DNA from: an uncultured Gemmatimonadaceae bacterium | Lineage (GTDB): Bacteria > Gemmatimonadota > Gemmatimonadetes > Gemmatimonadales > Gemmatimonadaceae | Assembly: GCA_963790305.1 (NCBI GenBank) | Contig: CAWBOC010000003.1 | Coordinates: 122,479-186,478, forward strand | Length of the DNA: 64,000 bases | Direction: 5' to 3' | Notes under the pieces: model-generated | The model's database searches: none | Seen by the model: only the letters and a program-made list of their open reading frames with translations | Told to the model about the DNA's origin: nothing | Translations under genes and position numbers: made by a program | In this document: positions 72 to 61,295 of the stretch, piece by piece | Layout: each line of letters begins with the position of its first letter | Position numbering within the stretch: the stretch's first letter is position 1

Positions 72-1659
72 TCACGCCAGCCCCATCCCCCACCGCGCCA
101 GGGGCGTCGGCAGCGCGCCGTACGACAGCAGCTCATCGTGGAAGGCGCGCAGGGAGAACATCGCGCCGCGCGCCTCGCGCGCGTCGTCGCGCAGGCGCAG
201 GATCTCACGACGGCCGACCGCGTAGCAGAGCTGATAGGTGGGAAACGCGCAGTAGCGAACGGCCTCCGCGCGTGCGGCGCCCTCCTCGAGGCCGAGCTCG
301 TCACGCAGGATCGCCGAGGCGGTGTCGACCGTCATGCCCTTCGTGTGCAGCGACACGTCGAGAATCACCCGCAGGGCGCGCCACAGCAGGTGGTGCACCT
401 GGAAGAAGCGGGCGGCGGGATCGCTGATGAAGCCCTGCTCGGCCATGAGGTTCTCGCAGTACAGCGCCCAGCCCTCCTGCGACGCCGGACTCGCCAGGAC
501 GCGTCGCACCGGCCGCGGCAGCGTACACGCCGTCACGATCTGGAGATGGTGGCCGGGAATACCCTCGTGCAGCGCCGTGCTGGGCAGCTCGGCGCGGCAG
601 TGCAGCCGCCATGGCTCGTTAGGCTGCGGCAGGGTGACGAAGAAGGTACCACGCGCATCGCCGTCGAAGGCGGCCGGTCCCTGGTAGGCGGCGAACGGGA
701 TGAGGGCGCGAAGGAAGTCGGGCGTCGGCGCGACGACGAGCTCTCCCTCGGGGACGGTGACCAGCCCACGCTCGGCGGTGAAGTCGAGCGCCGCCCGCAT
801 CGCGCTTCGATACTCGTCCACGGCCGTGTCACGGGTCGGCGTGTCCTCGCGCAGGACGCGCACGACGTCGCGCCACGGCGTATTCGGGACGAAGCTCGGC
901 CGCGAGACGCTCGAGCTCGGCAATCGCTTCGGCGCGCAATCGCTCGCCGAAGCGCAGGAGCTCGTCGGCGTTCTCACGGATCATGTGCGCGGTGTGGAGC
1001 TTGAGGTCGAACAGCTCACGCCCCAACCCGAAGTTCCCTTCCTCGGTCGGCTCCAGGAGCGCAAGCGCATCTCCAAAACGGTGAAGCGCATCCACCGCCG
1101 TGTCGCGCGCTTCGGCGAGCGCAATTGGATCGACGGGAAGATTGACCTTCCCGAGCCCATCGCGAAGCAGCGAGACCCCGCCCGCGATCATGGCTCGCGC
1201 CGTATCGAGAAACACGGTCAGCGGCTCGGTCAGCGCCGCGGCGGCCTCGTCGAGAAAACGCGGCATGGCCTGCACCCGCGCCAGGAGCGCCGCCCCGCGA
1301 CGCGCCGGATCGCCAGACTGCCGCGCGAGGAGCAGATGGATGCCGTTCAGTGCATAGAGGAGCGCATGCGTCGGATTGCGTGCGTGCGGCCTCTCGCGCT
1401 CGAGGATCAGCAGGTCATGACGCGCCGCGTGCAGCGTCGCGGTCCGGTCGATCTCGTCGTCGAGGGAGGCGGCCTCGACCTCCTCGAGACTCGCCGTGTA
1501 CGACCGCAGCGCAGCGGCGTACTCGCGCAGCGATGCGGGGTCGAAGCGCGGGAGCTCGGGGTCGAATTCCTGCCGGCCGACGTACGTGCCCTCGACCGGG
1601 TTGATACGCCAACGGAGATCGAGGTACCCCTCGAGAACGTCGGCGAGTGGCTCGCTCAC
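72..1659 (-). pseudogene. DUF885-family protein, one frame break as assembled
   Basis: ORFs 829..1659(-) and 72..977(-) are the N- and C-terminal parts of one DUF885-type protein (the C-part carries HEGIPGHH). They overlap in different frames at 829-977. Confidence 0.75.
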
Positions 1660-2906
1660 GCCCGCGCGGGCTGCCGTTTTTGTTCGCCGATCATCGCGTG
1701 CAGCTCGTCATCGCGGATCACGCGATTCATCCGCTTGGCCGCATCGAAGAGCAGTTGGCAGAGGGCATCGTCGGCGGGATCGTAGCCGTGCTCTTCGAGC
1801 CAGCACTTCACGTTCGAGAGCCCCGAGACGGGCGAGATCTCGATGCGCTGCGCAAGGCCGAAATCCCCGGCGGGCACTCCGGAGTAAATGCGATCAGCGA
1901 GCCAGGCGTGCCCTTTCTTTCGTGCCTTGATGATCGCGGCGGCGTGCACCCCAGTTCCGGTGCGAAAGGCGTCGTCGCCGAGCACGGGGTAGCTGGGCGG
2001 AATCGGGACGCCGCAAGCGCTCGACGCGAGATGCGAGTACTCGGGGAGCTTGCTGAGGTCGTGCCGGTGCGCGCCGAGCAGCTTGAGATTGATCAGCAGG
2101 AGATCCATCTCGGCATTGCCGACACGCTCGCCGATGCCTAACGCGGTCCCATGCACGCGGTCGACCCCCTCCTCGATCGCCGCCAGACAGTTGGCGAGCC
2201 CGAGTCCGCGGTCGCGGTGGCCGTGCCAGTCGAGCTTCACGTCCTCGCCGCTGGGGTCGATGATCTCATCGCGTACGAACCGGACGAGTCGACGCACGCC
2301 ATCGGGCGTCGCGTGCCCAACCGTATCGGCGAGACAGAGCCGCCGGGCGCCCCACCGAATCGCGTTGCCGTAGAGCGCCTTCAGCGTGTCGGGCGCGGCG
2401 CGCGTCGTATCCTCGGTGACGAACATGACCGGCAGCCCCTCACCCACGGCGAACGTCACCGCCTCCTCGCTCACGCGCAACATCTTCTCCAGCGTCCAGT
2501 CCTCGGCGTACTGGCGAATCGGCGAGGAGCCGATGAAGGTCGCCGCCTCGATGGGAATGCCGGCCTCCTGCGAGATGCGCGCAACCGGCTCGACGTCGGA
2601 GATGACCGTTCGGGCCGCACAGTTCGCCTCGAGGTCGAGGCCGGCGGCGGCGATCTCCTTGGCGAGCGCCAGCGTATCGGCGCGGGCGCGTGGTCCGGCG
2701 CCGGGGAGACCGATGTCAGCGGACGCGATCCCGAGGTCGACCATCAGGTGGAGCAGGCGCTTCTTGTCGTCGATGACCGGGTCGGTCACCGACGGGCATT
2801 GCAGCCCGTCTCGCAGCGTCTCGTCGTTGAGCTCGACGTGGCAAGCTCCCCAGTCGAACGGGGCGCCCTGCTGGTTCCAATCGTGGATCAGGTCCTGTTC
2901 GCGCAT
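1656..2906 (-). CDS. 2-isopropylmalate synthase / homocitrate synthase family protein (HMGL-like, short form)
   Basis: Intact 416-aa ORF with LNDETLRDGLQ, HGHRDRGLG and HGTALGIGERVGNAEMD motifs typical of LeuA/NifV-type enzymes. Confidence 0.8.
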   Translation of the reverse strand: MREQDLIHDWNQQGAPFDWGACHVELNDETLRDGLQCPSVTDPVIDDKKRLLHLMVDLGIASADIGLPGAGPRARADTLALAKEIAAAGLDLEANCAARTVISDVEPVARISQEAGIPIEAATFIGSSPIRQYAEDWTLEKMLRVSEEAVTFAVGEGLPVMFVTEDTTRAAPDTLKALYGNAIRWGARRLCLADTVGHATPDGVRRLVRFVRDEIIDPSGEDVKLDWHGHRDRGLGLANCLAAIEEGVDRVHGTALGIGERVGNAEMDLLLINLKLLGAHRHDLSKLPEYSHLASSACGVPIPPSYPVLGDDAFRTGTGVHAAAIIKARKKGHAWLADRIYSGVPAGDFGLAQRIEISPVSGLSNVKCWLEEHGYDPADDALCQLLFDAAKRMNRVIRDDELHAMIGEQKRQPARA

Positions 2907-2911
2907 GGAGA

Positions 2912-3039
2912 GAATCTAGAAGGCGGGCGCTAGAGGCGCTAAGGGCGCTAGAGGGCGCTAGAGGCGCTGCGTCAGGCTTGCAGCGCCCTAGCGCCCCTAG
3001 CGCCTCTAGCGCCTCTAGCGCCCCTAGCGCCTAGATTCA
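2912..3039. repeat. Long palindrome with arms of tandem 9-nt units (TAGAGGCGC family)
   Basis: GAATCTAGAAGG-(GCGCTAGAGG-like units x4)-GCTGCGTCAGGCTTGCAGC-(inverted units x5)-CCTAGATTC. It fills almost the whole 137-nt gap between divergent start codons at 2906 and 3044. Confidence 0.9.
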
Positions 3040-3043
3040 CTCC

Positions 3044-4233
3044 ATGCTCCGGCAGCTCTGGCACCACCCCGCCCTTCGGCAGGCGCGGCTACAGCTCGCG
3101 TCACGCGACCAGGACATCGTGCTCGAGCAGATCGCGGTGTCGGAAATCGCCGCGCCCACGGGCGAAGAAAATGAGCGGGCGCAGTGGGTGGCCCAGCGGT
3201 TCGAAGCGCTGAAGCTGAGCGACGTACGCATCGACCAAGCGGGCAATGTGATCGGACGACGGCGCGGGAGGACGGATGGCCCCGCGGTGCTCGTATGCGC
3301 ACATCTCGACACTGTCTTCCCGCGTCAGACGCGCGTCAGCGTGGCGCGACTCGGGAACCGCCTCGCTGGACCCGGCATCGGCGACAATGGGCGCGGCGTG
3401 GCGGCAATGCTGGCCCTCGCTACCGCGCTCGACGGCGCGACATTGGTCGACCGAGCGTCCCGTCGATTTCATTGGCACGACCGGTGAGGAAGGCGCCGGC
3501 GATCTCCGCGGCGCGAAGCACCTGTTCGCGCACGAGGGACGCGATGCGGCGGCGGCGGTCATCCTCGACGGCGCGGGGGACGAGCGCATCGTTCATCGTG
3601 CTCTCGCGTCTCGCCGCTACCGACTGACCTTCGAGGGACCGGGCGGGCACAGCTGGACGGCGTTCGGAGTGCCTAACGCCGTGCACGCCGCGGCGGTCGC
3701 GACGGCGCGGCTCGCGCGACTCGTCCTTCCGACGACGCCGCGCACGACGCTGTCGGTCGGACGCATCGGAGGCGGCATCTCCGTGAACTCCATCCCCGAC
3801 CGCGCGTGGCTCGAGGTGGACGCGCGGTCAGCGTCAGCCGGCGATGATCTCGCGCCTCGATCGCGACGTGCGTGAAGCCGCCGCAGCGGGCGCCATGGAG
3901 GAAAACGCGCGGCGGGCCGTGGGCGCGATACCGTTGACGTACACCGTGGAGGTAATCGGCGAGCGACCGGGTGGCGAAACGCCGGTCGATCACCCGCTCG
4001 TGCTCGCCGCCATGGAGGCGACGCGCCTCATCGGTCGGAACCCCGAGCTCGCGATCGCCTCGACCGACGCCAACATCCCGATCAGCCTCGGCATCCCCGC
4101 CGTAGCGATCGGTGCGGGCGGACGTGGCGGGGATGCGCACACGCCCGGGGAGTGGTTCGAGAACACCGAGGGCACTCTTGGGTTGAGTCGGGCGCTGGGT
4201 GTGGTGGTGAATGCGGCAGGGCTGGTCGTGTAG
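3044..4233 (+). pseudogene. M20-family metallopeptidase (peptidase T / deacetylase-like), two frame breaks as assembled
   Basis: ORFs 3044..3487, 3276..3875 and 3844..4233 (+) concatenate into one M20 protein (CAHLDTV, GIGDNGRG, TTGEEGAGDLRGA, GGGISVNSIPD, GGDAHTPGEW). Confidence 0.8.
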
Positions 4234-4237
4234 GGGC

Positions 4238-4350
4238 GCAAGAGCATAACCACAGAGGCACAGAGGACACAGAGGAAAACCCGCACTGCAAAGCGCTTTG
4301 CAGTGCGGGTCTTCCTCTGTGTCCTCTGTGCCTCTGTGGTTACGCTCTTT
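4238..4350. repeat. Long palindrome with arms of tandem 8-9-nt units (CACAGAGG family)
   Basis: AACCACAGAGGCACAGAGGACACAGAGGAAAACCCGCACTGCAAAGCGC / TTTGCAGTGCGGGTCTTCCTCTGTGTCCTCTGTGCCTCTGTGGTT. It lies between convergent gene ends and covers the stop codon of the minus-strand gene (4340-4342). Confidence 0.9.
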
Positions 4351-5336
4351 GGGCCCCGCGCACCTCGGAGTGATCCCCGACGGTGACCTCACCTTGCACA
4401 CCCTCGACGTGCACCTCGTCGCCGACCAGCGAATTCCGCAGCACGGAACGGATGATCTTCGACTTCTGTCCAACGAGTGTGTCGCTTGAGCTCCGAGTCC
4501 TCGACGACGGAGCCCGCGCCTAACGTGACATTGGGCCCGATCTTCGACCGTCGGAGCGTGACACCCTCCTCGATGTAGACGGGATCGACGATCGTACACC
4601 CGTCGGTCGCATCCGGACGCTGCGCCCTTCCCTTCTCCAGCATCGCGCGGTTCGTCTCGAGCAGCGTGTCGATCTTGCCGGCGTCGTACCAGCCCTCGAC
4701 GTCGATCACCCGGATCTTCGCGCCCTTGTCGATCATGTACTGGAACGCATCGGTGAGATAGTACTCGCCCTTGTTCTTGGGCTGCTTGAGCACCCACTCG
4801 ATGCCTTCGTAGAGCAGCTTCCAGTTCTTGATGTAGTACAGCCCGATGTTGGCGCGCTTCGAGATCGGCGTCGTCGGCTTCTCGACGATCTTCGTCATGT
4901 TGCCTTGCGTGTCGGTGACGACGACGCCGAAGCGCTGGTAGTCCTCGACCTCCTTCACCCAGATGATGCCGTCGGCGTCGGTCGTCTTGATGACCGAGAG
5001 GTCGGCGTCGAAGATCGTGTCGACGAAGATGATCGAGCACCGGCTGGTCGACGTGGCCGCGCGCGAGCGCGACGGCGCCGGCGGTGCCATCCTGCACCTT
5101 CTGCTCGATGAATACGGCGGGGAAGTCGAACTCCGCGCGCGACGTACTCCTCGACCTTCTCCTTGAGATGGCCGGTGATGTAGATGATCTGCTCGACGTT
5201 GCCGAGCTTCTCGAGATCGTCGAGGATGTACGCCATCACCGGCTTGCCGGCGACCTTGAGCATCGGCTTCGGCGTGATGTGCGTGTGCGGGCCGAAGGCG
5301 CGTGCCCTTCCCCGCCAGCGGAATGATCACTTTCAT
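4340..5336 (-). pseudogene. Sugar-phosphate nucleotidyltransferase (NTP_transferase domain plus left-handed beta-helix C-terminus), about three frame breaks as assembled
   Basis: MKVIIPLAGKGTRLRP (frame of ORF 4389..5735), MLKVAGKPVMAYILDDLEKLGNVEQIIYITGH (ORF 4955..5263), then IIFVDTIFDADL...YYLTDAFQYMIDKGAKIRVIDVEGWYDAGK...GPNVTLGAGSVVEDSEL. The C-terminal 45 codons are in a third frame and end at TAA 4340-4342. Confidence 0.75.
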
Positions 5337-5735
5337 GGCGCGCTCGTCCCCTCGCGTCCGTAGCGGTCCTGGAGTCGCACGACGTCGTCGAGCTCGGGCG
5401 TCGACGCCTCGAGGATGTCGCAGTCGGTGATCGCTTCCATGTAGTGCACGGTGCCGGGTGTGATGCGGAACGCGTCGCCCTCGCGCAAGCGAACATCCTC
5501 GAGCTCGTCGCCGGAGCTTGACCCAGTAGTTCATCTCGCCCTTGAGCAGGTAGACGGTTTCGTCCTTCTGGTTGTGATACTGCACCGAGAGCGCATGCCC
5601 GGCCTTGATGTGGAGCACCTTGCCGACGTAGCGGTCGGTGTGCGCCCAGATGATCTCGTAACCCCAAGGCTTCAAGACGCGCTTCACCGGGGATGTGCCG
5701 CTCAAATCTGAACTCCTCTTGGCGGGCGAGATCAA
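5333..5735 (-). pseudogene. Cupin-domain protein (mannose-6-phosphate isomerase type II C-terminal-like), one frame break as assembled
   Basis: The head of ORF 4389..5735 reads KPWGYEIIWAHTDRYVGKVLHIKAGHALSVQYHNQKDETVYLLKGEM. After a shift near 5510 it reads GDELEDVRLREGDAFRITPGTVHYMEAI...GREGTSAP, with a TGA overlapping the downstream ATG (ATGA). The true start may be the internal GTG near 5687. Confidence 0.65.
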
Positions 5736-5835
5736 CGTCCGCCGACGTCAGGATCAGACGTCAGGGTATTGCGCGATCGAAGTTTCTGACCACTGACCCC
5801 TGACGTCTGATCCCTGACGTCTGCGGACGTTGATC
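5730..5835. repeat. Long palindrome with periodic arms (GACGTCAGG/GATCAG units)
   Basis: GATCAACGTCCGCCGACGTCAGGATCAGACGTCAGGG ... CCCTGACGTCTGATCCCTGACGTCTGCGGACGTTGATC. It sits in the gap between divergent genes (cupin and UbiB-like). Confidence 0.85.
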
Positions 5836-5932
5836 TTCTGCTTCTGACGTCTGCAGTTGGCGCGGTGCTCGGGAATATCACGGGGCTCAGCATGCAGGCG
5901 CAACCGGAACGAAATATGCTTTCCCCGCCGTC

Positions 5933-7736
5933 ATGCTCCTGTCCCCCCGCTATCTACCGCGCCTCGCCGCGACGGTCGGCCTGTTCACGCGCTACGGCCT
6001 GAAAGACTTCGCCAAACGACAAGGGATCGAAGGGCTTGCGGCGGAGGAAGCCGAGGCAGCAGCCGTCGGGGAATGGTGACGGCGTCATCGAGCGTGCTCG
6101 CGCATTCCGCAAGCGCCTCGTCGAGCTCGGTCCGGCGTACATCAAGCTCGGACAGGTGCTGTCCACCCGCCCCGACCTTCTCCCCGAACCGTACATCCGG
6201 GAGCTCGAGCACCTTCAGGACGATGTCGATCCGCTCCCCTTTTCGGTGGTCGAGGAGACCGTCGAGAAGGAGCTCGGCGCCCGCATCAGCAAGCTGTTCG
6301 GTGAGTTCAACCCCGAGCCGCTGGGGAGCGCCAGCCTCGGTCAGGTGCACGAAGCAACGCTGCGAGACGGGCGGGCCGTCGTCGTCAAGTCGCAGCGTCC
6401 TGGCATTCGCGAGTCGCTCGCCGACGACATCGAGTTTTTCCGTGAGTTCGCGCGCTTCCTCGCCGATCACACGCGCGCTGGCCAGCGCATCGACCTCGTC
6501 GGCATCATTCAGCAGCTCGAGATGGCGCTTCTCGACGAGCTCGATTACCGGGTCGAGGCACGGAACGCGGCGGCATTTCGCCGGGAGCTCGCCGGGTATC
6601 CCGCGGCTGCTCATCCCGCGAGTCATCGAAGCGTACACCTCGGAGAAGGTGCTCACGATGGAGCGCATTCGTGGCATCAAGATCGACGACATTCCGAAGC
6701 TGTCGCGCGTCGAGCACGACTTCGGCGCGCTGGCCGAAGAGTTCGCCAAGGGCTACCTGAAGCAGATCACCATCGACGGCCACTTCCACGCCGACCCGCA
6801 TCCCGGGAACGTCTTCGTCGTAATGCCGGGCAGCGACAACCCGTGGACACCGGCCGAGGTGGTTGCCGGCGAACCGGCGCGCCGAGCCGCGTCCAGCTGT
6901 CACGCCGCTCTCGAAGATGGAGCAGGAGGCGCGTAAGGAGGCGAAGGACGAGGCGCCGGCAATCCCGTCACCCGACGAGCCGAAGCTCGCCATGATCGAC
7001 TTCGGCATGACCGCGCGCCTGTCGACGACGATGCGCGACCAGATCGTCCGGCTGCTGCTCGACATCGCCGAGAACAAGGGAGACGACGCCGCCGAGACGC
7101 TGATCGAGATCGGGCACGTGAGCGAGCGCTTCGACCGTCAGGAGTTCGTGCGCGGCAGTCGCATCGCTCGTCGGCCGGAACTACGATCTCGACATCGGCG
7201 AGATCGAGGCCGGCACGCTGCTGTACGAGATGCTCAACATCTCCTTCGCGCACGGCCTCATGCTGCCCGCCGAGCTCACGCTGCTCGCCAAGGCGCTGTT
7301 CAACCTCGACGCGGTCACGCGCTCGCTCGACCCCACGTTCTCGCCGATCTCGACGATCCGCGAGTTCTCGTCACGCATCGCGAACGAGCGGGCGAAGCGG
7401 GAGATGTCGCTCAGTCGAGTCTTTCAGGTCGCAACGCAGACGTCAGACTTGATCAGCGCGCTCCCCCATCGTCTCGACCTGCTGACGCAGAAGCTCGCGG
7501 CCAACGAGTTCGCCATCAAGCTGGAGTCCCCGCAGGTTCATCTCCTGCTGCGCGGGATGCAGAAGATCGCCAACCGCGTGTTCTCGGGCCTCGTCCTGGG
7601 CGGCGTCGTCGTCGCGAGCGCGATGCTGCTTCCCCATCGCAGAACTTTGGGGACCATGGGGTTCATCATCGCTGCCCTAATCGGGCTGTATATGGTCGTC
7701 GCGATCCTCGTGCAGGATCGAGCGGAGCGACGATAA
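5933..7736 (+). pseudogene. ABC1/UbiB-family atypical kinase with C-terminal TM segments, about four frame breaks as assembled
   Basis: Pieces lie in frames of ORFs 6036..6995 (LGPAYIKLGQVLSTRPDLLPEPYIRELEHLQDDV, GSASLGQVHEA), 5857..6936 (TMERIRGIKIDD, DGHFHADPHPGNVFV), 6863..8056 (MIDFGMTARL) and 7230..7736 (C-terminal TM part). The ATG at 5933 is in yet another frame. Confidence 0.8.
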
Positions 7737-7737
7737 T

Positions 7738-7797
7738 CGAATGCAGAATGCGGGATGCGGATACGTCATCCTTCCGCATTCCGAATTCCGCATTCGG
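7738..7797. repeat. Hairpin with heptamer-repeat arms (GAATGCG family)
   Basis: CGAATGCAGAATGCGGGATGCGGA-tacgtcatcc-TTCCGCATTCCGAATTCCGCATTCGG. It exactly fills the gap between convergent stops (7736 and 7798). Confidence 0.9.
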
Positions 7798-9626: not shown

Positions 9627-10649
9627 TCAATGCGCCCCTTCGCGGATCTGTCCAATGAACACGCTCGTCAGCACGGCGAAAATGAACGCCTGCAAGAATG
9701 CCACGAACAGCTCGAGCATCATGATCGCGAGCGCCATCACGAACGGGCCGCCTGCGACCCACCAGCTACCGAAGGTGAAAATGAGGCCCACCAGCGCAAG
9801 CACGACCACGTGACCCGCGGTCATGTTCGCGAAGAGACGAATCGCCAGCGCAAAGGGCTTGGTGAACTTTCCGATGATCTCGACCGGGGTCATGATCAGC
9901 GTCATCGGCAGCTTCATTCCCAGCGGCATGTCGTGCGGCCAGTAGACGATCGTGTTGATGTACCCCCTGCCTAACGTCCGGATGCCTGCCCACTCGACCA
10001 TCAAGAACGAGAGGATGGCGAGCGTCGCCGTCACCGAGATGTTGCCCGTCGCCGTCGAGCCGTACGGGACGAGGCCGAGCATGTTGGCGAACAGGATGAA
10101 GTAGAAGAGCGTCAGGATGAACGGGACATACCGCTCGCCGTGGTGGCCGACGTTCGGCATGATCACCTCGTTCCGCATGTAGAGCGACACGGCCTCGATC
10201 GCGTTCGGAAAACCCTTCGGCGCCCGGCCCGCTGCCTGGTACCGACGTGCACCGCGACCGGCGAAGAAAAGGGCCACGAAGGTGAGGATCGCGGCGAGCC
10301 AGAGCATGACGACGTGCTTGGTCGGCGAGAGGTCGAGCGTCGAAGCTCGCCAATGTGGATCGGCTCCCACTCCGGCAGGTGGCACTCGCGCGCCTGCCAG
10401 ATCTTCCACGACGCCGGGCACTCCATGTGGTGCGAGTCGCTGATGTGCGGCGTGATGATGTCGACGTTATGCGACGCCTCCGACTCGCCTGCGTGCTGCT
10501 CCTCGGGCGCGTGCCCCTGAATCTCCTGGGCGACCTTGGCCGAGACCATCGAATCGACGTCCGGCCGCGCCTGAGCTTCGTGCTCCTGCGCGAGCAGTGA
10601 GCGAGGCGCTCAGGAGGAGCGCGGCGGCCAGGGAGAGTCCGAATCTCAT
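9627..10649 (-). pseudogene. atpB: F-type ATP synthase subunit a with a long N-terminal extension, two frame breaks as assembled
   Basis: ORF 9627..10421 is the canonical a-subunit core (LAIRLFANMTAGH). ORF 10163..10549 supplies DIITPHISDSHHMECP...LPEWEPIHIG upstream. ORF 10467..10649 supplies a signal-like MRFGLSLAAALLLSAS, with its ATG overlapping the upstream stop (ATGA). Confidence 0.85.
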
Positions 10650-13306: not shown

Positions 13307-13389
13307 CGTTCAGTTCGCAGTCGCTTCCAGTGACTTGACGAGCCGATAGGCGGGTCCAAATGTCAGCGACAGCCTCCTCGGAGATCCCC

Positions 13390-14172
13390 ATGCTCATGCG
13401 TCGTCGGCTCGCCCCCATCATCCTTGGCACGCTGGTCATCGCCTGCGGCGACGGCTCGACCGGCCCAGGCGCAGTCGACCTTCGACTCGCCGCAAGCAGC
13501 TTCAATGACCTCGGCCTTTCGCGAAGGCGCGCCGGTGACGGCAGCGGCGCGGGCGCATCGCAGGCGGCGGCGCTGGCGTTGCGAGCCGGAGTTCGGCCGG
13601 CGCGGGTGCGGATCGCCATCGACGGGGTAACGGAGGACTACTGGGCGCTCGAGATCGAACGCGGCTTTGCGGGCGGGATCAGAATGTTATCGACCGCGCC
13701 TGACCCTCTCGTCGGACGAACCCTGGTGGCCTGGCGCGGCGGACCGGTTGAGCGCGTCGTCTCGTTCACGATCATGAGCGACACCGGCACTTTCTCGCTC
13801 ATGCGGTACTACGGGCTGGGTGCGCTCCCCCCGGATCGTATTCTTTTCGATCCTGCCTTCGGTGTCATGTTCGAGCGGGGGGGACCGGCACATCTCTCGG
13901 TCGATGGTGGCGCACGCAGCACGCGCGAATCGCTCGGCTCGGAGTGCGAGGCGCCGCAGAGATCCATTCTGAACATGCTGTCGTCGTTCTATCTGCCCGA
14001 GACGTGTCAGCGCGCGGTCTTCTTCACCCGCTTCAACATGCGGGTGCAAGAATGGACGTCCGCCGGGCTGGACGCGGCGCGATCACGCGTCGTGGAGATG
14101 GCGGGTCACGAGGTCCCGGGCATTCGGCTCGAGTATCAACCGATCGAGCGGCCGTGTCCGGTGTGTGACTAG
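13390..14172 (+). CDS. Hypothetical lipoprotein with C-terminal CPVC
   Basis: ORF 13360..14172. MLMRRRLAPIILGTLVIAC is a lipobox. I recognise no family. Confidence 0.5.
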   Translation: MLMRRRLAPIILGTLVIACGDGSTGPGAVDLRLAASSFNDLGLSRRRAGDGSGAGASQAAALALRAGVRPARVRIAIDGVTEDYWALEIERGFAGGIRMLSTAPDPLVGRTLVAWRGGPVERVVSFTIMSDTGTFSLMRYYGLGALPPDRILFDPAFGVMFERGGPAHLSVDGGARSTRESLGSECEAPQRSILNMLSSFYLPETCQRAVFFTRFNMRVQEWTSAGLDAARSRVVEMAGHEVPGIRLEYQPIERPCPVCD

Positions 14173-14264
14173 AGGCGCTAGAGGCGCTAGAGGCGCTAGA
14201 GGCGCTAGAGGCGCTAGAGGCGGCTAGCCTCAGCGCCCTTAGCGCCTTTAGCGCCTCTAGCGCC
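14170..14264. repeat. Hairpin of tandem 9-nt units (TAGAGGCGC x6 then inverted GCGCCNNTA x3-4)
   Basis: Starts on the TAG stop codon of the upstream gene: (TAGAGGCGC)x6 GGCTAGCCTCA GCGCCCTTAGCGCCTTTAGCGCCTCTAGCGCC. Confidence 0.9.
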
Positions 14265-14345
14265 TTTCGACACTCTTACCGCCCCTCCCTTAACCTGGCG
14301 CGCCTCCCTCGGTAGAATTCGGGCGACCCAACCTACGGGACGCAC

Positions 14346-16751: not shown

Positions 16752-16814
16752 TCGCTCTGTTTCACGCGATGCCCCCGTCGGCCAGGCCGGCGGGGGCATC
16801 GTTTTTTTCATGAC

Positions 16815-31300: not shown

Positions 31301-31555
31301 CTGCATCACGAGGAGGGGAACGACCTATTTGCGGCGCGATACTTCCTGCTACTCGCCGGCATTGGTCGACGCTATGAAGCAGAGGTGGAAATGCGGAAAT
31401 ACCTCGCGTCACGGACTAAATCGCCCGTTCAGTACAGCCCGACTCTGAAGGCGGTCATACGACAGTTTTCGCCGAGCGGCACGGAGGATCCTGCGACTAG
31501 CGGCTACCTACTTTCCGAAGTCGACCTGACGTCGCCATCACCACCCGTGAGCTGA
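28374..31555 (+). pseudogene. SARP/BTAD - AAA(P-loop) - TPR STAND-type transcriptional regulator (about 1060 aa), about four frame breaks as assembled
   Basis: ORFs 28332..28709 (winged-helix: ELLGILWPEATGSRAAHCLRQTIYRLR), 28654..29535 (BTAD helices; VGRSAEMGILT...FIHGEPGIGKTRLL), 29417..29893 (VLVVSIEDVQWLD; GGNPYYLSELA), 29881..30660 and 30512..31555 (TPR-like helical repeats) read through as one protein. Confidence 0.7.
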
Positions 31556-33006
31556 TGGGCGTCGGTTCCCTCTGTTCTGGCACAAAGAGGAGTGACCAGA
31601 GTGGGCTCGCCAATAACCGATCGCAAATCATGGGATCAAACTGGCGGGCCCGTTGCCGAATGAACTCGGACCGCACCTCCGGCTCGCCTCTGGCTTGACG
31701 GTATGGTCGATCCGTTGTCATCGCGTCTATAGTATCCGCGAACATGATGATTCGAGACTCAAGCGGTATATCCTCTCCCGCCAGACCGTCCGGGTAGCCC
31801 GATACCGTCCCAATTCTCGTGATGGTGGCGCAACGGAGCGACCAAGTCGCGCAGATTGCTCACGGTCGCCACGAACTCCGCACTCCGAATGGGATGGGTC
31901 TGCATGATGGCCCATTCGTCAGGCGTAAGCTTATCCGGCTTGCTCAGAATCGGCGCGTACATTTCGTGAATCTTGCCGACATCGTGCAGTAGAGCAGCCG
32001 TTCCAACGCGCTCGATCCGTCGTGTCGTAAGCCCGATGGCGCGCGCAATAATCTTCGAGTAGTGCGCGACCCGCATCGAGTGACCGGAGGTGTACGGATC
32101 CCGCGCCTCGATTGCCTTAACCATCAATTGCAGCAGTTCTTGGTTCACCTGTTCAAGTTTTGCTGTCGTACTGTAAAGCTGTCGGACGCCTAATAGCGGG
32201 ATCGCTAGGCAGACTGCTCCGAGCGGGCCAGTGCGAGCAAAAGCCCAGGCAAGCAGCAGAACCACAGGCGCTGCTAGGACGTCGTAGACAAGGGAGTGAA
32301 GAGTATTCTTGCGCCAGACACGCAGAATGCGACTTGCCTTCACTTACTGCGATCGCGCCGCTTACCGACAACGTATTCACAGCAAAGAAGACGACCGTGA
32401 GCAGGAGGAACGGAATCCCGAATCCCGACGCATCGTACGCAAGCTCTTCTAAGGGCGCTCGCAGAATCGATTCACCACCGAATGCCAAATAGCACAGTGT
32501 ACCAAGGGCGGTCGCCAAGGACATTTGCGCAACGTTGAAGACGCGCCTTGAGCAAGGGGCGCTGGCTGAGTACCTCGGCGATGACGTACGCGAGGGCCAC
32601 CGATACGGCGCTCGTCCAGTGGGGAGCGACGAGAACCAAGCGCCAAGAAAGGAATAAATGCGATCGTCCCTCCCGCGCCCTGCGGAAGGGAGAAGAGCAT
32701 CATTTGCGCCAGAATTCCCAGCCCGGATAGCCAAAGCGCGGCGCCGACGTGCGCAAACGACATTCCGGCCGATACGCGTAGAGCGCAACGACCGCGAGCG
32801 ACTGCCAGCAGACAATTGATACCGACGTACTGCTGTATTCTGATCGCATAGAAGCTGGGACCCCCGTCCCCGACTGCTAGATCCACATCTGCGAGCCACC
32901 GGAAAACACAAACTTCATCAAACCACTCACGAGCCCGGCCAAGAACTCCATGGTGCGTCACCTCCCTCAGGATAAGTCGCACCGGCATCCGCCGAATGCG
33001 CTCCAA
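31497..33006 (-). pseudogene. Membrane-anchored HD-GYP-domain phosphodiesterase, at least three frame breaks as assembled
   Basis: ORFs 32449..33006 and 32153..32911 give the TM helices. ORF 31759..32343 gives DPYTSGHSMRVAHYS...ALLHDVGKI...HHENWDGIG. Removing one G from a GGG run near 31798-31800 gives GIGYPDGLAGEDIPLESRIIMFADTIDAMTTDRPYR, continuous with ORF 31497..31745. Confidence 0.75.
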
Positions 33007-34028: not shown

Positions 34029-34055
34029 TGCGGCTTCGAAGTGAGACTGCGCGGA

Positions 34056-35725: not shown

Positions 35726-35779
35726 CGATTGCGCGCTGCCCGGAGGGCGCGCGGATTGCGGATTGCGCATCAGCCTCAT

Positions 35780-36275: not shown

Positions 36276-36337
36276 GGTGATCGAGGGTGCTCCAGGGCGC
36301 CGAGGGCGATCGAGGTGACGTCGTTGCCTCGATCACC
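36276..36337. repeat. Hairpin with GATCGAGG-type units
   Basis: GGTGATCGAGG ... GATCGAGGTGACGTCGTTGCCTCGATCACC, in the gcvT-mogA junction. Confidence 0.6.
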
Positions 36338-47486: not shown

Positions 47487-47512
47487 AGAACGCGATTGCG
47501 GATTGCGGATTG
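47487..47512. repeat. Direct heptamer tract (GATTGCG x3), no clear inverted partner
   Basis: GCGATTGCGGATTGCGGATTGCGGAG immediately upstream of the argF start. A shorter copy (GGATTGCGGATTGCG) lies at about 35747-35762. Confidence 0.7.
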
Positions 47513-47699
47513 CGGAGTTATTACGGCCATAGCCGCGGCGAATGCGGGGAAGTTAGCCAACTCGGGCGGTCGGTCGCGAGAGGGAAGGCGACGCTGTCCG
47601 GCGCGAAGGGAGTCCGACAGGCTCCGGCCCCGCACTTGCGTTAGGTGCAGTGCGCGCCACACGGGTGGCGGCACAAGGGCCATCGACTGCGGGGGACGT

Positions 47700-48287: not shown

Positions 48288-48372
48288 GTTTACAGAGGCG
48301 ACAAGGGGCACAGACCTCGACCAACGCTCGACGGCCTCGACCACATCTGTGCACCCTGTGCCTCTGTGGTAA
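48288..48372. repeat. Imperfect palindrome of the CACAGAGG family
   Basis: TTACAGAGGCGACAAGGGGCACAGA ... TCTGTGCACCCTGTGCCTCTGTGGTAA, downstream of the OMP gene. Confidence 0.7.
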
Positions 48373-50227: not shown

Positions 50228-50360
50228 CTAGGGTTCAGGAGTCAGGAGTCAGGGATCAGGGGGTGTCAGGGTAAAGGTTCGAGGAGAAAGGCCGACGCGA
50301 CTCCTGAAACCTCCACCCTGACACCCCCTGATCCCTGACTCCTGATTCCTGACTCCTTAG
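50228..50360. repeat. About 130-nt palindrome with heptamer-repeat arms (GTCAGGA/GTCAGGG family), copy A
   Basis: CTAGGGTTCAGGAGTCAGGAGTCAGGGATCAGGGGGTGTCAGGGT ... ACCCTGACACCCCCTGATCCCTGACTCCTGATTCCTGACTCCTTAG. It spans from the MCP stop to the stop of the minus-strand lipoprotein gene. Confidence 0.9.
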
Positions 50361-51017: not shown

Positions 51018-51181
51018 CGTGGCCTCTTGCGGTGAAGGACGAGCGCGCCGCACGCATTCTGCGTTCCATGCAACAGTCCAAAACCGATCGTGAAACGACA
51101 ACCACTTACGCTGTTCGCTCGGCGCCACATGTGGCGACGGCCGTGATAGAGCTCCGCTGCGCGATTGAGGTGCGGTTGCCA

Positions 51182-51316
51182 CTAGGGGTCAGGAGTCAGG
51201 AGTCAGGGATCAGGGGGTGTCAGGGAGTGGGTTGCAGGAGAAACTGCATGCAGTTCTCTCCTGCAACCCATTCCCTGACACCCCCTGATCCCTGACTCCT
51301 GACCCCTGACCCCTAG
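51182..51316. repeat. About 134-nt near-perfect palindrome, same GTCAGGA family, copy B
   Basis: CTAGGGGTCAGGAGTCAGGAGTCAGGGATCAGGGGGTGTCAGGGAGTGGGTTGCAGGAGAAACTGCA/TGCAGTTCTCTCCTGCAACCCATTCCCTGACACCCCCTGATCCCTGACTCCTGACCCCTGACCCCTAG. It shares an identical 38-nt arm segment with copy A and overlaps the hslU stop codon. Confidence 0.92.
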
Positions 51317-52779
51317 AGGATGTATTTCCGCAGATCCTCGTCCTCCACGATCGCCTTCAGGCGGTCGCGCACCGTCGCCTCGTCGATTACGATCGCCTTC
51401 GACCGCGCGGTCGGGCAGCTCGTACAGCACGTCCTCCAGCAGCGTCGTCATCACCGTGTGCAGCCGCCGGGCGCCGATGTTCTCCATGCGCTCGTTGACG
51501 GTGGCGGCGATGCGCGCGACTTCGCGGATCCCGTCCTCCTTGAACTCGAGTGTCGCCCCCTCCGCCTCGACGAGGGCCACGTACTGCTTGATGAGGGCGT
51601 TCTCGGGCTCGGTGAGGATGCGAACGAAGTCTGCCTCGGTGAGTGGCTTGAGCTCGACACGAATCGGGAAGCGACCCTGAAGCTCCGGGATCAGGTCGCT
51701 CGGCTTGGAGACGTGGAACGCGCCCGCGGCGACGAAGAGGACGTGATCGGTCTTCACCATCCCGTACTTCGTCTGCACGTTCGAGCCTTCGACGATCGGC
51801 AGGAGATCGCGCTGCACCCCTTCGCGCGACACGTCGGGGCCGTGCGACTGGCCGCGCTCCCCGGCGATCTTGTCGATCTCGTCGAGGAAGATGATGCCCA
51901 GCTTCTCCACGCGCTCGAGCGCGTCGGAGGTGACGTCTTCCTGATCGATGAGCTTGTCGAACTCCTGCTCGAGCAGAATGCGACGCGCCTCGGACACCTT
52001 CACCGTGCGCTTCTTCTTCCGCTTCGGCAGCATGTCCTGGATCATGTCGCTGAAGTTCTCCATCCCTTCAGCGGCACCCTGCGGGACCATCATGTCGAAC
52101 ATCGGGCCGGCCGACTGCGTGACCTCGATCTCGACCTCGCGCCCCTCGAGCTGCCCATCGAGGAGGAGCTGCTTCAGCTTCTCGCGCGTGCGACGGTAAC
52201 GCTCCTTGGCGCCGTCGTCCTGCTCCGTTTGCACCTCACCGGCGGCCGAGACGACGATAGAGCGTCGGTGATCCACCCGCCGCCGCGGCCGGCTCGGGCT
52301 TGGCGGCCGGCTGCTTGGCTTCCTGCGGCACCGGCAGCAGCAGATCGAGCAGGCGCTCCTCGACCTTCTCATGGGCGAGATCCTCGACTTCCGTCTCGCG
52401 CTCGGTGCGCACCATGTCGATCGCGCTGTCGACGAGGTCGCGCACCATCGACTCGACGTCGCGGCCAACGTAGCCCACCTCGGTGAACTTCGACGCCTCG
52501 ACCTTGATGAACGGCGCACCGGCGAACTTGGCGAGCCTGCGCGCGATCTCGGTCTTTCCCACCCCGGTTGGACCGATGAGGATGATGTTGTTCGGCGAGA
52601 TCTCGTCGCGAATCGAATCGGGCGCCTGCTGACGCCGCCACCGATTGCGCAGCGCAATGGCGACAGATTTCTTCGCATCGCCCTGCCCGACGATGTACCG
52701 GTCGAGCTCGGCGACGATCTGCTTCGGCGTGAGGTCGGCGAGGCGGGCGACAGCCGGCCTGAGTGCGCTTAGAGAGCAT
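51313..52779 (-). pseudogene. hslU: ATP-dependent protease ATPase subunit HslU, about three frame breaks as assembled
   Basis: The ATG at 52779 is followed, after a shift, by [34 protein letters not shown]...[15 protein letters not shown] (frame of ORF 52236..52562), then ORF 51203..52678 ([35 protein letters not shown]). The C-terminus ...DLRKYIL is in another frame and ends at TAG 51313. Confidence 0.88.
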
Positions 52780-52791
52780 TGTTAGGGAGCG

Positions 52792-52882
52792 CAATGCGGA
52801 ACGACGGAATGCGGAATGCGAGGAAGGCAGACGGGCCGATGCAAGGCGTACGCTGAATGCCGCTTCCGCATTCCGCTTTCCT
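52792..52882. repeat. Hairpin of the GAATGCG family between hslV and hslU
   Basis: GCAATGCGGAACGACGGAATGCGGAATGCGAGGAAGGC ... GCCGCTTCCGCATTCCGCTTTCC. Confidence 0.8.
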
Positions 52883-53433: not shown

Positions 53434-53457
53434 GTGCGAGAAAGATACGTCCGACTA

Positions 53458-53497
53458 AAGGCGCCGGAGGCGCTGGAGGCGCTAGGGGCGCTAGCGG
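53458..53497. repeat. Direct 9-nt unit tract (GGAGGCGCT-like x4)
   Basis: AAGGCGCCGGAGGCGCTGGAGGCGCTAGGGGCGCTAGCGG, upstream of hslV. It is related to the TAGAGGCGC family but I see no inverted arm nearby. Confidence 0.6.
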
Positions 53498-54022: not shown

Positions 54023-54150
54023 GAAGCAGGGGTCAGAGGCGATAAAGGCGCCAGGGGCGCTAAGGGGCCGCTGAGCTTCGCGCCCGCGGCCCTCATGAGC
54101 GCGGCAGCTTCGCTGCCGCGCCTTCCTAGCCCTGCCTCCTGACTCTGACC
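54023..54150. repeat. Imperfect composite palindrome (GTCAGAGG/GGCGC units)
   Basis: CAGGGGTCAGAGGCGATAAAGGCGCCAGGGGCGCTAAGGGGCCGC ... GCGGCAGCTTCGCTGCCGC ... CCTGCCTCCTGACTCTGACCTC, between the xerC stop and the membrane-protein start. Confidence 0.6.
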
Positions 54151-56420: not shown

Positions 56421-56553
56421 GCTTCGAATGCGGAATGCAGAATGCGGAAAGTCATGATGAAATAGTGGGTGGTGCGAGTTGATCGCGCCACCCACAATCC
56501 ATCACAACATTCCGCATTCCGCATTCCCCGATTCCGCATTCCGCATTCGGCTT
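56421..56553. repeat. Composite palindrome of the GAATGCG family with an inner GTGGGTGG/CCACCCAC hairpin
   Basis: CGAATGCGGAATGCAGAATGCGGAAAG ... GTGGGTGGTGCGAGTTGATCGCGCCACCCAC ... ACATTCCGCATTCCGCATTCCCCGATTCCGCATTCCGCATTCGG. It fills the topA-trmFO gap. Confidence 0.9.
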
Positions 56554-56554
56554 C

Positions 56555-59078
56555 TCAGACCGCCACCGCCTCCTCTTCGCGGGCAACCACGTCCCACTCG
56601 TTGCCGCACTTGAGACATTTGCGGAATTCACCGCGTGCCTTCGTGCTCTTCGACTCCGCGCCCTCGAAGCCGCACTCGGGGCACCGCTCGGCCACCGGGC
56701 GATTCCAGGAGACGAAGTCGCAGTTGGGGTAGTTCGCGCACCCGAAGAAGATCTTCCCGCGGCGGGAGCGGCGCTCGGTGAGATCGCCGCCATCCTTCGG
56801 GCATTTCACGCCAAGCGGGATCGGCCGGGTGTGCTTGCACTCGGGGTAGCGGCTGCAGGCCATGAAGCGACCGTACCGCCCATGCTTGATCAGCATCGGG
56901 GCACCGCACTCTCGACAGACTTCGTTCGTCGGCTCGTCAGGCTTCTTGTCGCCGGCGAGGCGACGGGTGTGCTTGCACTCCGGATAGTTCTCGCAGGCGA
57001 TGAACGGCCCGAAGCGGCCGCTTCGCGCGATGAGTCGGCCGCCATCCTCCGGACAGCGCTCGTTGACCAGATCGCCGAGGTCGTGCGCGTCAGCGATCAT
57101 TTTCTGCGGGTCGGCGGTCTTGAGCGCCGACTCGAAGGGCTTCCAGAACTCCTCGAGCACACGCTGCCAGCCGAGGCTGCCGTCCTCGACCTTGTCGAGC
57201 TCCTCCTCCATCTCCGACGTGAATTTCACGTTGAAGATGTCGGGGAACTGCTTGACCATCACCCGCTCGACCTTCTCACCGAGATCGCTCGGGAAGAAGC
57301 GGCGCTGCTCGAGGCGGGCGTACTGCTTCTCGGTGAGCGTCGAAATGATCGACGCGTAGGTCGACGGACGCCCAATGCCGAGCCGCTCGAGCTCCTTCAC
57401 GAGGCTCGCCTCGCTGAAGCGCGGCGGAGGCTCGGTGAAGTGCTGGTTAGGCACGATCTCGCGCACCGGGAATGCGCTCACCCGTCTCGAGCACCGGGAG
57501 GGGCTGCTCATCCTCGAGCGCTCGCCCCTCCCCTTCCTCGTGCGCTTCGCGATACAGCGCGAGGTAGCCGGAGAACTTGATGACGGAGCCGGTGGAGCGG
57601 AAGTGAAACGACTGCGAACCATCGGCTTCGAGATGGTACTCGACCGTGGTGGTGTCGAACACCGCCGGCGCCATCTGCGATGCCATGAAGCGCTGCCAGA
57701 TCAGCTGGTAGAGCTTGAACTGGTCGGCGTCGAGGTAGCGGCGGATGTGCTCGGGGTGCCGAGTGGGATCGGTGGGGCGCACGGCCTCGTGTGCGTCCTG
57801 TGTATTCGCCTGCTTCGCGTTCCCGTAGAGCCGCGGAGAGTCGGCGAGGAATTCCTTGCCGAACAACACGCGCAGATGATCGCGCGCCTGGCCCGCGGCA
57901 GTCGGAGACACGCGGGTGGAGTCGGTGCGCATGTACGTGATGAGACCGACCGTCTCGTCGCCGAGCTCGATGCCCTCGTAGAGATCCTGCGCCACGCGCA
58001 TCGTGCGCTTCGAGCCGAAGCCGAGCTTCTTCGCCGCTTCCTGCTGAAGGGTGCTGGTCGTGAACGGCGCGGAGGGGTTCTTTCGGCGCTCGCGGCGCTT
58101 TACGTCGGAGACCGGGAAAACGCCGACTGCGCGCTGCGTACTGCGTGCTGCGTGCTGCGAATTCATTTCCCGCTTCGCGATCGCGGTGACGGCATCGACG
58201 ATTCCCTTCGCCGTCTGCTCGTTAGGGATCTCGGGCTTCTTGCCATCGAGGTGGTGCAGCCGCGCGGTGAACTGCTGGCCTTCCTTCTCCAGCTGCGCCT
58301 CGATGCTCCAGTATTCGACGGCCTTGAAGGCCCGGATCTCGCGCTCGCGCTCGACGATCAGGCGGAGGGCCACCGTTTGAACGCGTCCCGCCGAGAGGCC
58401 GGTTTTCACCGTCTTCCACAGGAGGGGCGAGGCCTTGTACCCAACGAGCCGATCGAGCACGCGACGCGCCTGCTGCGCTTCGACCTTCTTCTCGTCGATG
58501 ACGCCTGCGTTGTCGATCGCGTGCTGCACCGCGTCCTTCGTGATCTCGTGGAAGAGCACGCGGCGAATGGGCGCGCCGCCACGGCGGCGAATCTGGTCGG
58601 CGACGTGCCACGCGATCGCTTCGCCTTCGCGATCGGGGTCGGTGGCGAGGAAGATCTCGCGCGCATCCTTGGCCGCGGTCTTGAGATCGGCGAGCGTCTT
58701 CTCCTTCCCCGCGATCGTCACGTACTCGGGGACGAAGCCCGAGTCGATGTCGATGCCAAGCTTCTTCTGCGGCAGGTCGCGGACGTGACCCACCGTGGCC
58801 TTCACTCGATAGGCGCGGCCGAGGTACTTCCCAATGGTCTTGGCTTTGGCGGGTGACTCGACGATGACGAGCGACGCGCCCGACCCCATCACCGAGGGCG
58901 TGTCGTCGACCGCCGGGGGCGTCTTCGCGGTCACAGTCGTCTTTCGACCCGAGCGGCGCGACACGACCTTCGTCGGCGCACCCACGAGGGGCTTCGCGCT
59001 CTTACGCGCCGTCTTCGCGACCTTGGGGGCTTTGGACGCTTTCGCTCGCTTGGGCGCCTTTGTCTTCTTCTCGGCCAT
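56555..59078 (-). pseudogene. topA: DNA topoisomerase I with C-terminal zinc ribbons, one frame break as assembled
   Basis: From MAEKKTKAPK within ORF 57447..59264 (LVIVESPAKAKTIGKYLG, TOPRIM; APFTTSTLQQEA) plus ORF 56555..57622 (FTEPPPRFSEASLVKELERLGIGRPSTYA; repeated CxxC zinc ribbons). The break near 57466 is one extra base in a C/G run. Confidence 0.92.
58127..58161. repeat. Five tandem heptamers (CTGCGNN) inside the topA coding sequence
   Basis: CTGCGCG CTGCGTA CTGCGTG CTGCGTG CTGCGAA on the plus strand. It is translated in frame on the minus strand as ...EMNSQHAARSTQRAVG... Confidence 0.85.
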
Positions 59079-61190: not shown

Positions 61191-61205
61191 GCCGAGAACA
61201 TAAAG

Positions 61206-61264
61206 CAGAATGCGGAATGCGGAATGCGGATATGATCACCGCAGTTCCGCATTCCGCATTCCGA
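61206..61264. repeat. Hairpin of the GAATGCG family
   Basis: CAGAATGCGGAATGCGGAATGCGGA-tatgatcaccgcagt-TCCGCATTCCGCATTCCGAG, between the aroC start and the upstream gene's stop. Confidence 0.9.
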
Positions 61265-61295
61265 GTTCAGCTCAGCTCGGAGCGGCTGTAGGTAC

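Follow-up and report, generated by a model that had tools for sequence, protein, structure and literature searches.

How does one structural plan, a long palindrome whose arms are tandem arrays of a short word, come to recur between the genes of a single genome in many different words? The question is raised by a stretch of 64,000 nucleotides from an uncultured Gemmatimonadaceae bacterium (GenBank assembly GCA_963790305.1, contig CAWBOC010000003.1, positions 122,479 to 186,478 of the forward strand; this whole stretch is called the window). An initial annotation of the window had listed at least 13 such intergenic elements, all of one architecture (the first of them, here called the focal element, proves to lie between a leuA-like gene and an M28 peptidase gene), and had offered three origins: slippage plus strand-switch duplication, a structure-specific mobile element, or selection for the structure itself. 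The analysis described here favors, with some confidence but well short of certainty, the view that the elements make up many families of small, non-coding mobile palindromic repeats with heptamer-array arms, which resemble repetitive extragenic palindromes (REP) and the miniature transposable elements with inverted repeats known as MITEs and are locally modified by slippage and inverted copying. Sequence comparison shows each word to be a family copied whole to many unrelated intergenic sites, with fixed termini, a typical unit number and a conserved inner arm segment; copies to lie within about 0-13 nt of stop codons, often supplying the stop (TAG or TAA, in both orientations); site occupancy to turn over quickly among related genomes; and the purine- or G-rich arm to be almost always the 5' one.

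The palindromes themselves are readily confirmed. Tandem Repeats Finder (TRF) detects arrays of period 7-10 on both arms, a repeat search gives arms of 24-63 nt that are 82-96% complementary, the arms lie 0-92 nt apart, and folding with RNAfold, which the initial annotation had proposed, yields long hairpins. Elements are cited below by the first position under which they were originally listed, and their extents are collected in Table 1. Scored against 200 dinucleotide shuffles per element, ten of the 14 are very strong, nine of them with z from -6.0 to -18.2 and the tenth (9438) judged on its arms; the remaining four (48288, 52792, 54023 and 36276; z -2.7 to -4.6) lie where they had been placed but are weak or partial. 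A strict detector, which demands an array of period 7-12 with an inverted partner within 220 nt, returns eight elements from the window but 0 from every one of 20 shuffles that preserve dinucleotides, and tandem arrays number 24 in the window vs 2-10 in the shuffles. The 14 elements sum to 1506 nt, or 2.4% of the window. The arm-only tracts at 35747-35762, 47487-47512 and 53458-53497 are genuine by TRF. The reported ends at stop codons or CTAG also stand: the first TAG of the 14170 array is the stop of the open reading frame (ORF) 13360-14172, 7738 lies between two stops, 50228 has stop codons at both ends with TAA directly 5' of CTAGGG, and 51182 is bounded by CTAG...CTAG. What had been overlooked is the polarity of the elements, with the purine-rich arm 5', and the dominance of period 7.

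Palindromes in a long-read assembly may be products of the assembly or of chimeric reads, and the window is indeed error-rich, with most conserved genes frameshifted: relative to their orthologues, the M28 peptidase is spread over 3 frames, UbiB over 5 and the NTP-transferase over 4. This splitting points to an unpolished long-read assembly, which the window probably is, or, alternatively, to massive pseudogenisation; given so many frameshifts in conserved genes, 1-nt irregularities within units may be sequencing errors. A genuine fold-back artefact caused by an element is seen at a contig end of a relative (L006 1-70; L-numbers denote sequence stretches from relatives or metagenomes), where the contig opens with the reverse complement of the palindrome's far flank. 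However, the elements are only 60-180 nt long and have syntenic genes on both flanks, and equivalent, sometimes identical, elements stand inside short-read contigs from many independent samples, including short-read metagenome-assembled genomes (MAGs) of relatives and metagenome contigs. The palindromes are therefore not artefacts, and an origin in the assembly, to which we attach almost no credence, may be regarded as already effectively refuted.

Whether a word arises separately at each site or is carried there can be judged from the GTCAGG family. Its two members in the window, 50228 and 51182, share their heptamers, the order of the variants and a conserved inner arm segment. The 20-mer GGGATCAGGGGGTGTCAGGG from this segment matches 110 metagenome stretches and, as regards a viral origin, has no match in IMG/VR. 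In soil metagenomes, 69 full copies fall into 48 clusters with unrelated flanks, yet they have fixed termini (xAGGGGTCAGG...CCTGACCCCTx), the whole element being an inverted repeat with ends AGGGGTCAGG...CCTGACCCCT, and mostly exactly 4 units per arm (range 3-8). A further species has the family as well (L008 8352-8465), in a position that is taken in the window by a member of another family. The suggestion that one plan is realised independently at each site with unrelated words thus gives way to dispersed repeat families, one for each word, and among the three origins offered the structure-specific mobile element fits best, given 69 full copies, 48 unrelated loci, fixed termini and the conserved inner arm segment. 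Within the 64 kb, GAATGCG occupies 4 sites, CTAGAGGCG 3 and GTCAGG 2. In one stretch (L121 459-830) a full GTCAGG element is followed by two 113-nt tandem copies with a degenerate 5' arm, a cluster like those of bacterial interspersed mosaic elements (BIMEs).

Of the GTCAGG sites, 32 can be classified: 16 lie between convergent and 16 between co-directional genes, with 0 divergent ones. Mostly, the stop of the gene that faces the element begins 0-13 nt ahead of the terminus; for 12 of 72 it is made up of a T and the AG of the element itself. Window elements occupy all three classes of spacer, and many are flush with stop codons or contain them. Insertion at the centre of existing palindromes was considered and set aside as a general rule, since the complementarity between flanks barely exceeds that under permutation (4.16 of 13 positions vs 3.58 +/- 0.27); a complementary run of at least 6 occurs in 3 of 37 copies.

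The class extends well beyond one genome. In a census set of 1.18 Mb, composed of 80 Gemmatimonadaceae UbiB loci (one genome per species), L001-L003 and the window, the strict detector finds 55 elements with 43 distinct words; the period is 7 in 42 of them and 8-11 in 13. With contiguous units of 7-11 nt and inverted arms, rather than 24-48-nt repeats separated by unique spacers of similar length, they are not CRISPR arrays, nor do they follow a single REP/BIME sequence, and the initial annotation was right to call them a recurrent class of another kind. The 5' arm is purine-rich in 52 of the 55 and has more G than C in 47 (binomial p = 8e-8 for G>C); it is purine-rich in 151 of 153 elements of the metagenome loci. 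This polarity holds at divergent sites too and, because a palindrome reads alike on both strands, must be intrinsic to the element rather than an effect of the strand. A near inverted partner accompanies 88 of 265 arrays, and solo direct heptamer arrays are abundant (168 without an inverted partner). Most words lack four G-runs (e.g., GAATGCG, CAGAATT and CACAGAGG), and no single G-run word dominates. Orientation classes for all families, drawn from the ubiB-centred loci, were discarded because repeated orthologous sites and crude gene calls bias them.

Some loci hold nested or multi-word arrays (L030 3157-3345, L062 2947-3193). In the former, GGCTGGT, GGCGAGT, CCTAGCA and CCACCAG follow in succession, and a second composite array (L043 16268-16438) runs through GCGGGGC, GCGAGTA and CACGCAT x13. 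In L031 1932-2443, the ubiB stop is followed directly by a pair of inverted GATCGTG arrays; the 450 nt that separate them contain no convincing ORF.

Comparison of orthologous intergenic regions, as the initial annotation had advised, finds the same sites holding different families, or none, in relatives. The convergent M28/NTP-transferase site carries five different families in six genomes: the CACAGAGG element in the window and, as the same CACAGAGG(A) element at the orthologous site, in L006; a member of the GTCAGG family in L008; a GAGGAGT-type hairpin in L007; a GAAGGTGT/GGGTGTCAAGG hairpin in L009; and a GGGGnnCGA-type hairpin in L002. None is present in L003, where an ordinary GC hairpin is found, or in L001, whose spacer is 11 nt. 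The ubiB/atpH site holds (GAATGCG)3 in the window, (GGATTGC)3 in L007, GGAACGA/GGAAGAA in L008, (GGACCGA)3 in L001 and, in L005 and L006, a gene-bearing element of 560 nt whose arms are (CTGCGTA)n. The focal site holds a different palindrome in L002 (GGAGGAGCGCC units) and none in L001 and L003. Other elements look vertically inherited: 9438, in the atpB-atpE spacer, recurs in L005 and L006 with a unit number that differs by one, and at the cupin/ubiB site L002, L005, L006, L008 and L009 all retain the outer stem and the CAGRnnn heptamers, with slow drift at three positions per unit.

Elements are also remodelled in place. Where the focal element faces M28, its outermost 16 nt (CTAGATTCACTCCATG) repeat in inverted form those that face leuA (CATGGAGAGAATCTAG). 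It is the leuA flank that is ancestral: L001 and L002 have GAATCTAG there, and their M28 flank reads CTCAATTYC...CATG. Such flank symmetry is what intramolecular template switching would produce, and this quasi-palindrome correction is established in E. coli. Slippage and inverted copying, invoked in the initial annotation, have thus left traces, namely variation in unit number and the right flank of the focal element.

A history of dispersal followed by local change would proceed as follows. The elements would spread by a putative copy-and-paste route without target duplication, served either by a structure- or single-strand-specific enzyme or by replication template switching between arrays. 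After arrival, replication slippage would add or remove units, and intramolecular template switching would make the flanks symmetrical. When transcribed, the elements are predicted to fold into very stable stem-loops that might serve to mark or process the 3' ends of transcripts and the spacers of operons without being canonical terminators, and these would be suited to transcript-end protection or to processing by RNase III. Rho prefers C-rich, G-poor unstructured RNA; solely from this preference, the polarity may be read as a means to avoid exposing a C-rich single strand to Rho, the G-rich, C-poor arm emerging first.

Several results weigh against mobility or against the functions just proposed. 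The flanks of the 69 GTCAGG copies have no 2-9-nt direct repeat that could be a target-site duplication (TA...TA occurs in a minority only), and the 69 aligned copies share no conserved target motif, so that no known transposition chemistry is implicated. No gene for a transposase, including IS200-like enzymes and REP-associated tyrosine transposases (RAYTs), is recognised by Pfam or NCBIfam among the approximately 35 window ORFs, those of the low-GC 28-34 kb included; a tblastn search with an approximate IS200 TnpA query, a weak test, found no match in 1.66 Mb. No clean pair of empty and filled sites can be demonstrated among the available relatives because the closest are only about 90% identical to the window (89-90%). 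The GTCAGG copies were gathered from metagenomes with an exact 20-mer, which skews the sample toward conserved copies. Elements between divergent genes (two) and inside the atp and hslVU operons mean that a simple 3'-end function cannot hold for all. Finally, the slow drift of the vertically inherited cupin/ubiB element fits evolution in situ too.

Generation in situ is the alternative to be taken most seriously, although we consider it unlikely. It supposes that a word is expanded by slippage, that strand-switch (quasi-palindrome) template switching makes the inverted arm and keeps it symmetrical, and that the whole then drifts in concert. The converted right flank of the focal element is what it expects, as are the varying unit numbers, the 168 solo arrays, the CAGRnnn heptamers that all cupin/ubiB relatives keep within a conserved outer stem as the variable positions drift, and the ubiB/atpH words GGATTGC, GGAATGC, GGAACGA and GGACCGA, which differ by 1-2 substitutions. 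Yet it leaves unexplained why 48 unrelated loci share termini, order of unit variants and inner arm segment, why one family occupies non-orthologous sites of different species and why unrelated families occupy one site. Nor do the arms co-vary within GTCAGG copies: 99 shared changes are observed vs 99 +/- 9 when permuted, which suggests that each copy took its palindrome from a master sequence, with no visible upkeep through compensatory change. The same result tells against selected RNA or DNA structures without mobility of their own (bidirectional terminators, RNase III or stabilising stem-loops, cruciform insulators) that recur through selection, and leaves the third origin in the initial annotation, selection for the structure itself, with no direct evidence of selection on pairing. 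That hairpins are predicted to be extremely stable, abut stop codons tightly, with enrichment at convergent gene ends in one family, keep a strict polarity and persist at the same sites across species despite changed words would all follow from such selection, and a further point in its favor is that canonical hairpin plus T-tract terminators are no commoner than in shuffles. But the stems are not followed by T-tracts; 2912 and 5730 lie between divergent starts, and others in the spacers atpB-atpE and hslV-hslU, positions at which strong termination would do damage; sites are empty in some relatives (L001, L003); and convergent evolution cannot yield identical 130-nt sequences at 48 loci. We hold selection without mobility to be decidedly unlikely.

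A further possibility is raised by the gene in the 560-nt element of L005 and L006, which encodes a 140-aa four-helix-bundle protein of PF05635, the "23S rRNA intervening sequence protein" family (E = 4e-11). PF05635 genes have (CTGCGTA)n arms in L005 and L006; in L021 the arms are degenerate ACTGCGn, and L195 and L198, which represent the same locus on 0.5-3-Mb contigs and carry a homologue that is 60% identical, have 45-nt modules with (TGCTGAT)2. The elements might accordingly be binding-site arrays for a repeat-recognising protein, possibly PF05635, which is related to Avd, and the short palindromes might be non-coding relatives of the gene-bearing ones; Avd is an accessory protein of diversity-generating retroelements. 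All four PF05635 genes examined are bracketed by long inverted arrays of differing words, the L005/L006 element sits where the window has a short palindrome, the heptamers combine four conserved with three variable positions, and contigs of about 1 kb hold most of the homologues, which would be expected of repeats that interrupt assembly. Set against this, 1.6 Mb holds 3 PF05635 genes vs about 200 short elements, the window itself holds none, the words of the arms around them are not those of the common short families, a pre-existing palindrome could simply have taken the gene into its loop, and the family is not known to have any nucleic-acid enzyme activity. The link between the two kinds of palindrome is only suggestive, and binding arrays are a very improbable explanation. 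Improbable, too, is the broader proposal that both belong to one mobile system, in which a small Avd-like protein, rather than a classical transposase, would recognise the hairpins of heptamer arrays and help to copy them into DNA beside stop codons that is prone to form hairpins; if true, a very widespread family of uncharacterised proteins would acquire a function, and the 23S rRNA intervening sequences, like the heptamer repeats of Xanthomonas and cyanobacteria, would have their origin explained. In the window, a 33-nt CTGCGTG array within topA, whose word is that of the L005/L006 arms, amounts to a loop insertion of about 12 aa (SQHAARSTQRAVG) relative to the homologue in PDB 6ozw.

The focal element is a near-perfect 143-nt palindrome in which a 5' arm of about 5 x GCGCTAGAG(G), a loop of about 7 nt and a 3' arm with the inverted array follow one another. 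TRF places the period-9 arrays at 2925-2968 and 2982-3031, the repeat search pairs 29-31-nt arms (90% complementary) in several registers, and the RNA fold reaches -119.5 kcal/mol vs -64 +/- 4.3 in dinucleotide shuffles (z -12.9). Its outer stem takes in both divergent ATGs and a TAGATT box 6 nt 5' of each (2904-2920, 3030-3046). The box resembles a -10 element, and its leuA-side copy is conserved in L001 and L002. No Shine-Dalgarno sequence precedes the leuA or M28 start, so the two mRNAs may be leaderless, with promoters inside the palindrome.

Table 1. Palindromic elements, solo arrays and frame-split genes of the window, and PF05635 genes bracketed by inverted arrays in other stretches.
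Stretch	Feature	Coordinates	Strand	Setting and remarks
Window	Focal palindrome (2912), CTAGAGGCG (9-nt) family	2904..3046	none	Divergent; leuA-like (start 2906, minus)/M28 peptidase (start 3044, plus)
Window	CACAGAGG(A)-family palindrome (4238), 62-nt arms, 4-nt apical loop	4233..4356	none	Convergent M28/NTP-transferase; z -18.2
Window	GACGTCAGG/GATCAGA palindrome (5730), heptamers TCAGRnn	5729..5836	none	Divergent cupin/ubiB; z -11.4
Window	GAATGCG-family hairpin	7738..7797	none	Convergent; exactly spans gap between ubiB stop (7736) and atpH stop (7798); z -6.0
Window	CCGCAGAWGG (10-nt) palindrome, 40-nt arms 95% complementary, 92-nt loop	9438..9615	none	Co-directional, within conserved operon; atpB-atpE spacer
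Window	CTAGAGGCG-family palindrome (14170), six perfect 5'-arm units	14165..14276	none	z -11.4 (14170-14264)
Window	Weak element, GATCGAGG-type direct repeats, 11-12-bp outer stem	36276..36337	none	gcvT/cinA-like gene; z -2.7
Window	Weak degenerate ACAGAGG-like hairpin, loosely periodic	48288..48372	none	Upstream of chemoreceptor (methyl-accepting chemotaxis protein, MCP) gene; z -4.6
Window	GTCAGG-family element CTAGGG...CCTTAG	50228..50360	none	Convergent MCP gene/ORF 50357-51130; z -15.1
Window	GTCAGG-family element CTAGGGG...CCCCTAG (51182)	51179..51319	none	Downstream of hslU; z -17.6 (51182-51316)
Window	Partial GAATGCG-family hairpin	52792..52882	none	Co-directional, within conserved operon; hslV-hslU spacer; z -3.5
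Window	Weak composite, mixed units (GGGGTCAGAGGCG...)	54023..54150	none	z -3.0
Window	GAATGCG-family palindrome, nested inner hairpin	56421..56553	none	Flush with topA stop (56555); z -9.8
Window	GAATGCG-family hairpin	61204..61272	none	Between chorismate synthase gene start and end of ORF 61296-63803; z -10.2 (61206-61264)
Window	Solo direct array GCGGATT x2.4	35747..35767	+	TRF
Window	Solo direct array GATTGCG x3.3	47487..47516	+	TRF
Window	Solo direct array, CTAGAGGCG-like 9-mers x4	53455..53497	+	TRF
Window	Solo CTGCGTG x4.7 array	58127..58159	+	In frame within topA; TRF
Window	DUF885 gene	75-1659		Conserved gene split over 2-5 frames
Window	M28 peptidase gene	3044-4233		Conserved gene split over 2-5 frames
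Window	NTP-transferase/cupin gene	4355-5705		Conserved gene split over 2-5 frames
Window	UbiB gene	5933-7733		Conserved gene split over 2-5 frames
Window	atpB	9630-10600		Conserved gene split over 2-5 frames
L005	PF05635 gene bracketed by long inverted tandem arrays	3414-3976		
L006	PF05635 gene bracketed by long inverted tandem arrays	3475-4083		
L021	PF05635 gene bracketed by long inverted tandem arrays	2500-3130		
L195	PF05635 gene bracketed by long inverted tandem arrays	1160-2065		

The window has a GC content of about 66%, and the leuA-family protein encoded beside the focal element shares 97% identity with proteins from soil metagenomes and 93% with one from a Gemmatimonadaceae MAG. A region of lower GC (0.58-0.62; window 30000-34300), possibly foreign DNA, contains no palindromic elements, and its ORFs have no Pfam match except an HD-domain protein. 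Rfam 15 gives 0 matches at the gathering score over the whole window. As canonical terminators the elements were rejected, their stems lacking T-tracts and a consensus scan flagging within them only a 5-bp inner stem (4283-4296). A textbook intrinsic terminator does occur at 16766-16802, where a 17-bp stem is followed by TTTTTTT, so the organism uses canonical terminators at some genes.

Although bacteria have been known since 2007 to contain an excess of heptamers, no mechanism has been given for it, and the inverted pairs of Xanthomonas have been examined only as possible G-quadruplexes. The Gemmatimonadaceae offer a much richer case, with dozens of word families, strict polarity, defined ends, placement at stop codons and fast site turnover, and they make it possible to test how such elements spread, why the unit has seven nucleotides, and whether they are selfish DNA or signals for transcript ends and processing. 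For annotators of soil MAGs, there is also a practical side: the elements break short-read assemblies, cause fold-back contig ends and yield spurious ORFs.

Literature searches found no description of such elements for Gemmatimonadota, and they apparently are undescribed in Gemmatimonadaceae. Precedents exist nonetheless, which corrects the picture in the initial annotation: inverted pairs of tandem heptamers are already on record in Xanthomonas, where GGGAATC arrays, studied for G-quadruplex formation, form 70-75 convergent inverted pairs per genome at positions conserved between species (Rehm et al., 2015; PMC4692102). Like those repeats, the present elements are intergenic tandem heptamers with the G-rich array first, paired on opposite strands so that stem-loops or cruciforms can form, and conserved in position and type among related species while their lengths vary. 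Unlike the essentially single Xanthomonas word, they use 43 words in 55 elements, most of them unable to form quadruplexes, have defined termini, a conserved inner arm segment and also periods of 8-11, and belong to a different phylum. The heptamer excess was known as well: heptanucleotide repeats, for which slippage has been hypothesised, are the most abundant long simple repeats (5-11 nt) in many bacteria (Mrazek et al., 2007, as summarised by MacGregor, 2015; PMC4679880). As in those repeats, the cyanobacterial short tandemly repeated repetitive (STRR) sequences and the TAACTGA repeats of Beggiatoaceae, heptamers dominate here, lie between genes near starts and stops, may contain stop codons within the unit and have slippage as their proposed generator. 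Those are mainly direct arrays, however, with one inverted case in 170 sets of TAACTGA (PMC4679880), whereas one-third of arrays here (the 88 of 265 given above) are inverted-paired and whole palindromes are dispersed as units.

With REP, BIME and REPIN (paired REP) sequences, the elements share a short, extragenic, hairpin-forming and multi-copy nature, a position after genes, several families per genome and tandem clusters, as in L121 (PMC3116915; PMC2817692). Classical REPs they are not: a REP unit is a 20-40-nt imperfect palindrome, and a REPIN two of them (PMC3116915; PMC2817692), whereas a single arm here is a purine-rich array that folds weakly by itself (-1 to -11 kcal/mol); the CTAGAGGCG family, with GCGC and CTAG in its unit, is the exception. 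The families are also many more than in REP/RAYT systems, and no RAYT turned up in the window ORFs scanned. Bacterial MITEs (Correia, Nezha, RUP) are alike in their 60-180 nt, long terminal inverted repeats, many unrelated loci and occasional supply of stop codons; membership of the classical type was rejected for lack of a target-site duplication in the GTCAGG copies, and the elements further differ in having no conserved target and no parent insertion sequence with matching ends among the sequences covered, in being GC-rich and in the internal periodicity of their inverted repeats. Intervening sequences of 23S rRNA are described as having a PF05635 gene in the loop of an inverted-repeat stem, an arrangement that the gene-bearing palindromes of the relatives follow; unlike intervening sequences, these palindromes lie between protein-coding genes and have stems made of tandem arrays. 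What the Gemmatimonadaceae elements add to these known systems is the multitude of families, defined ends, polarity, docking at stop codons and turnover of sites.

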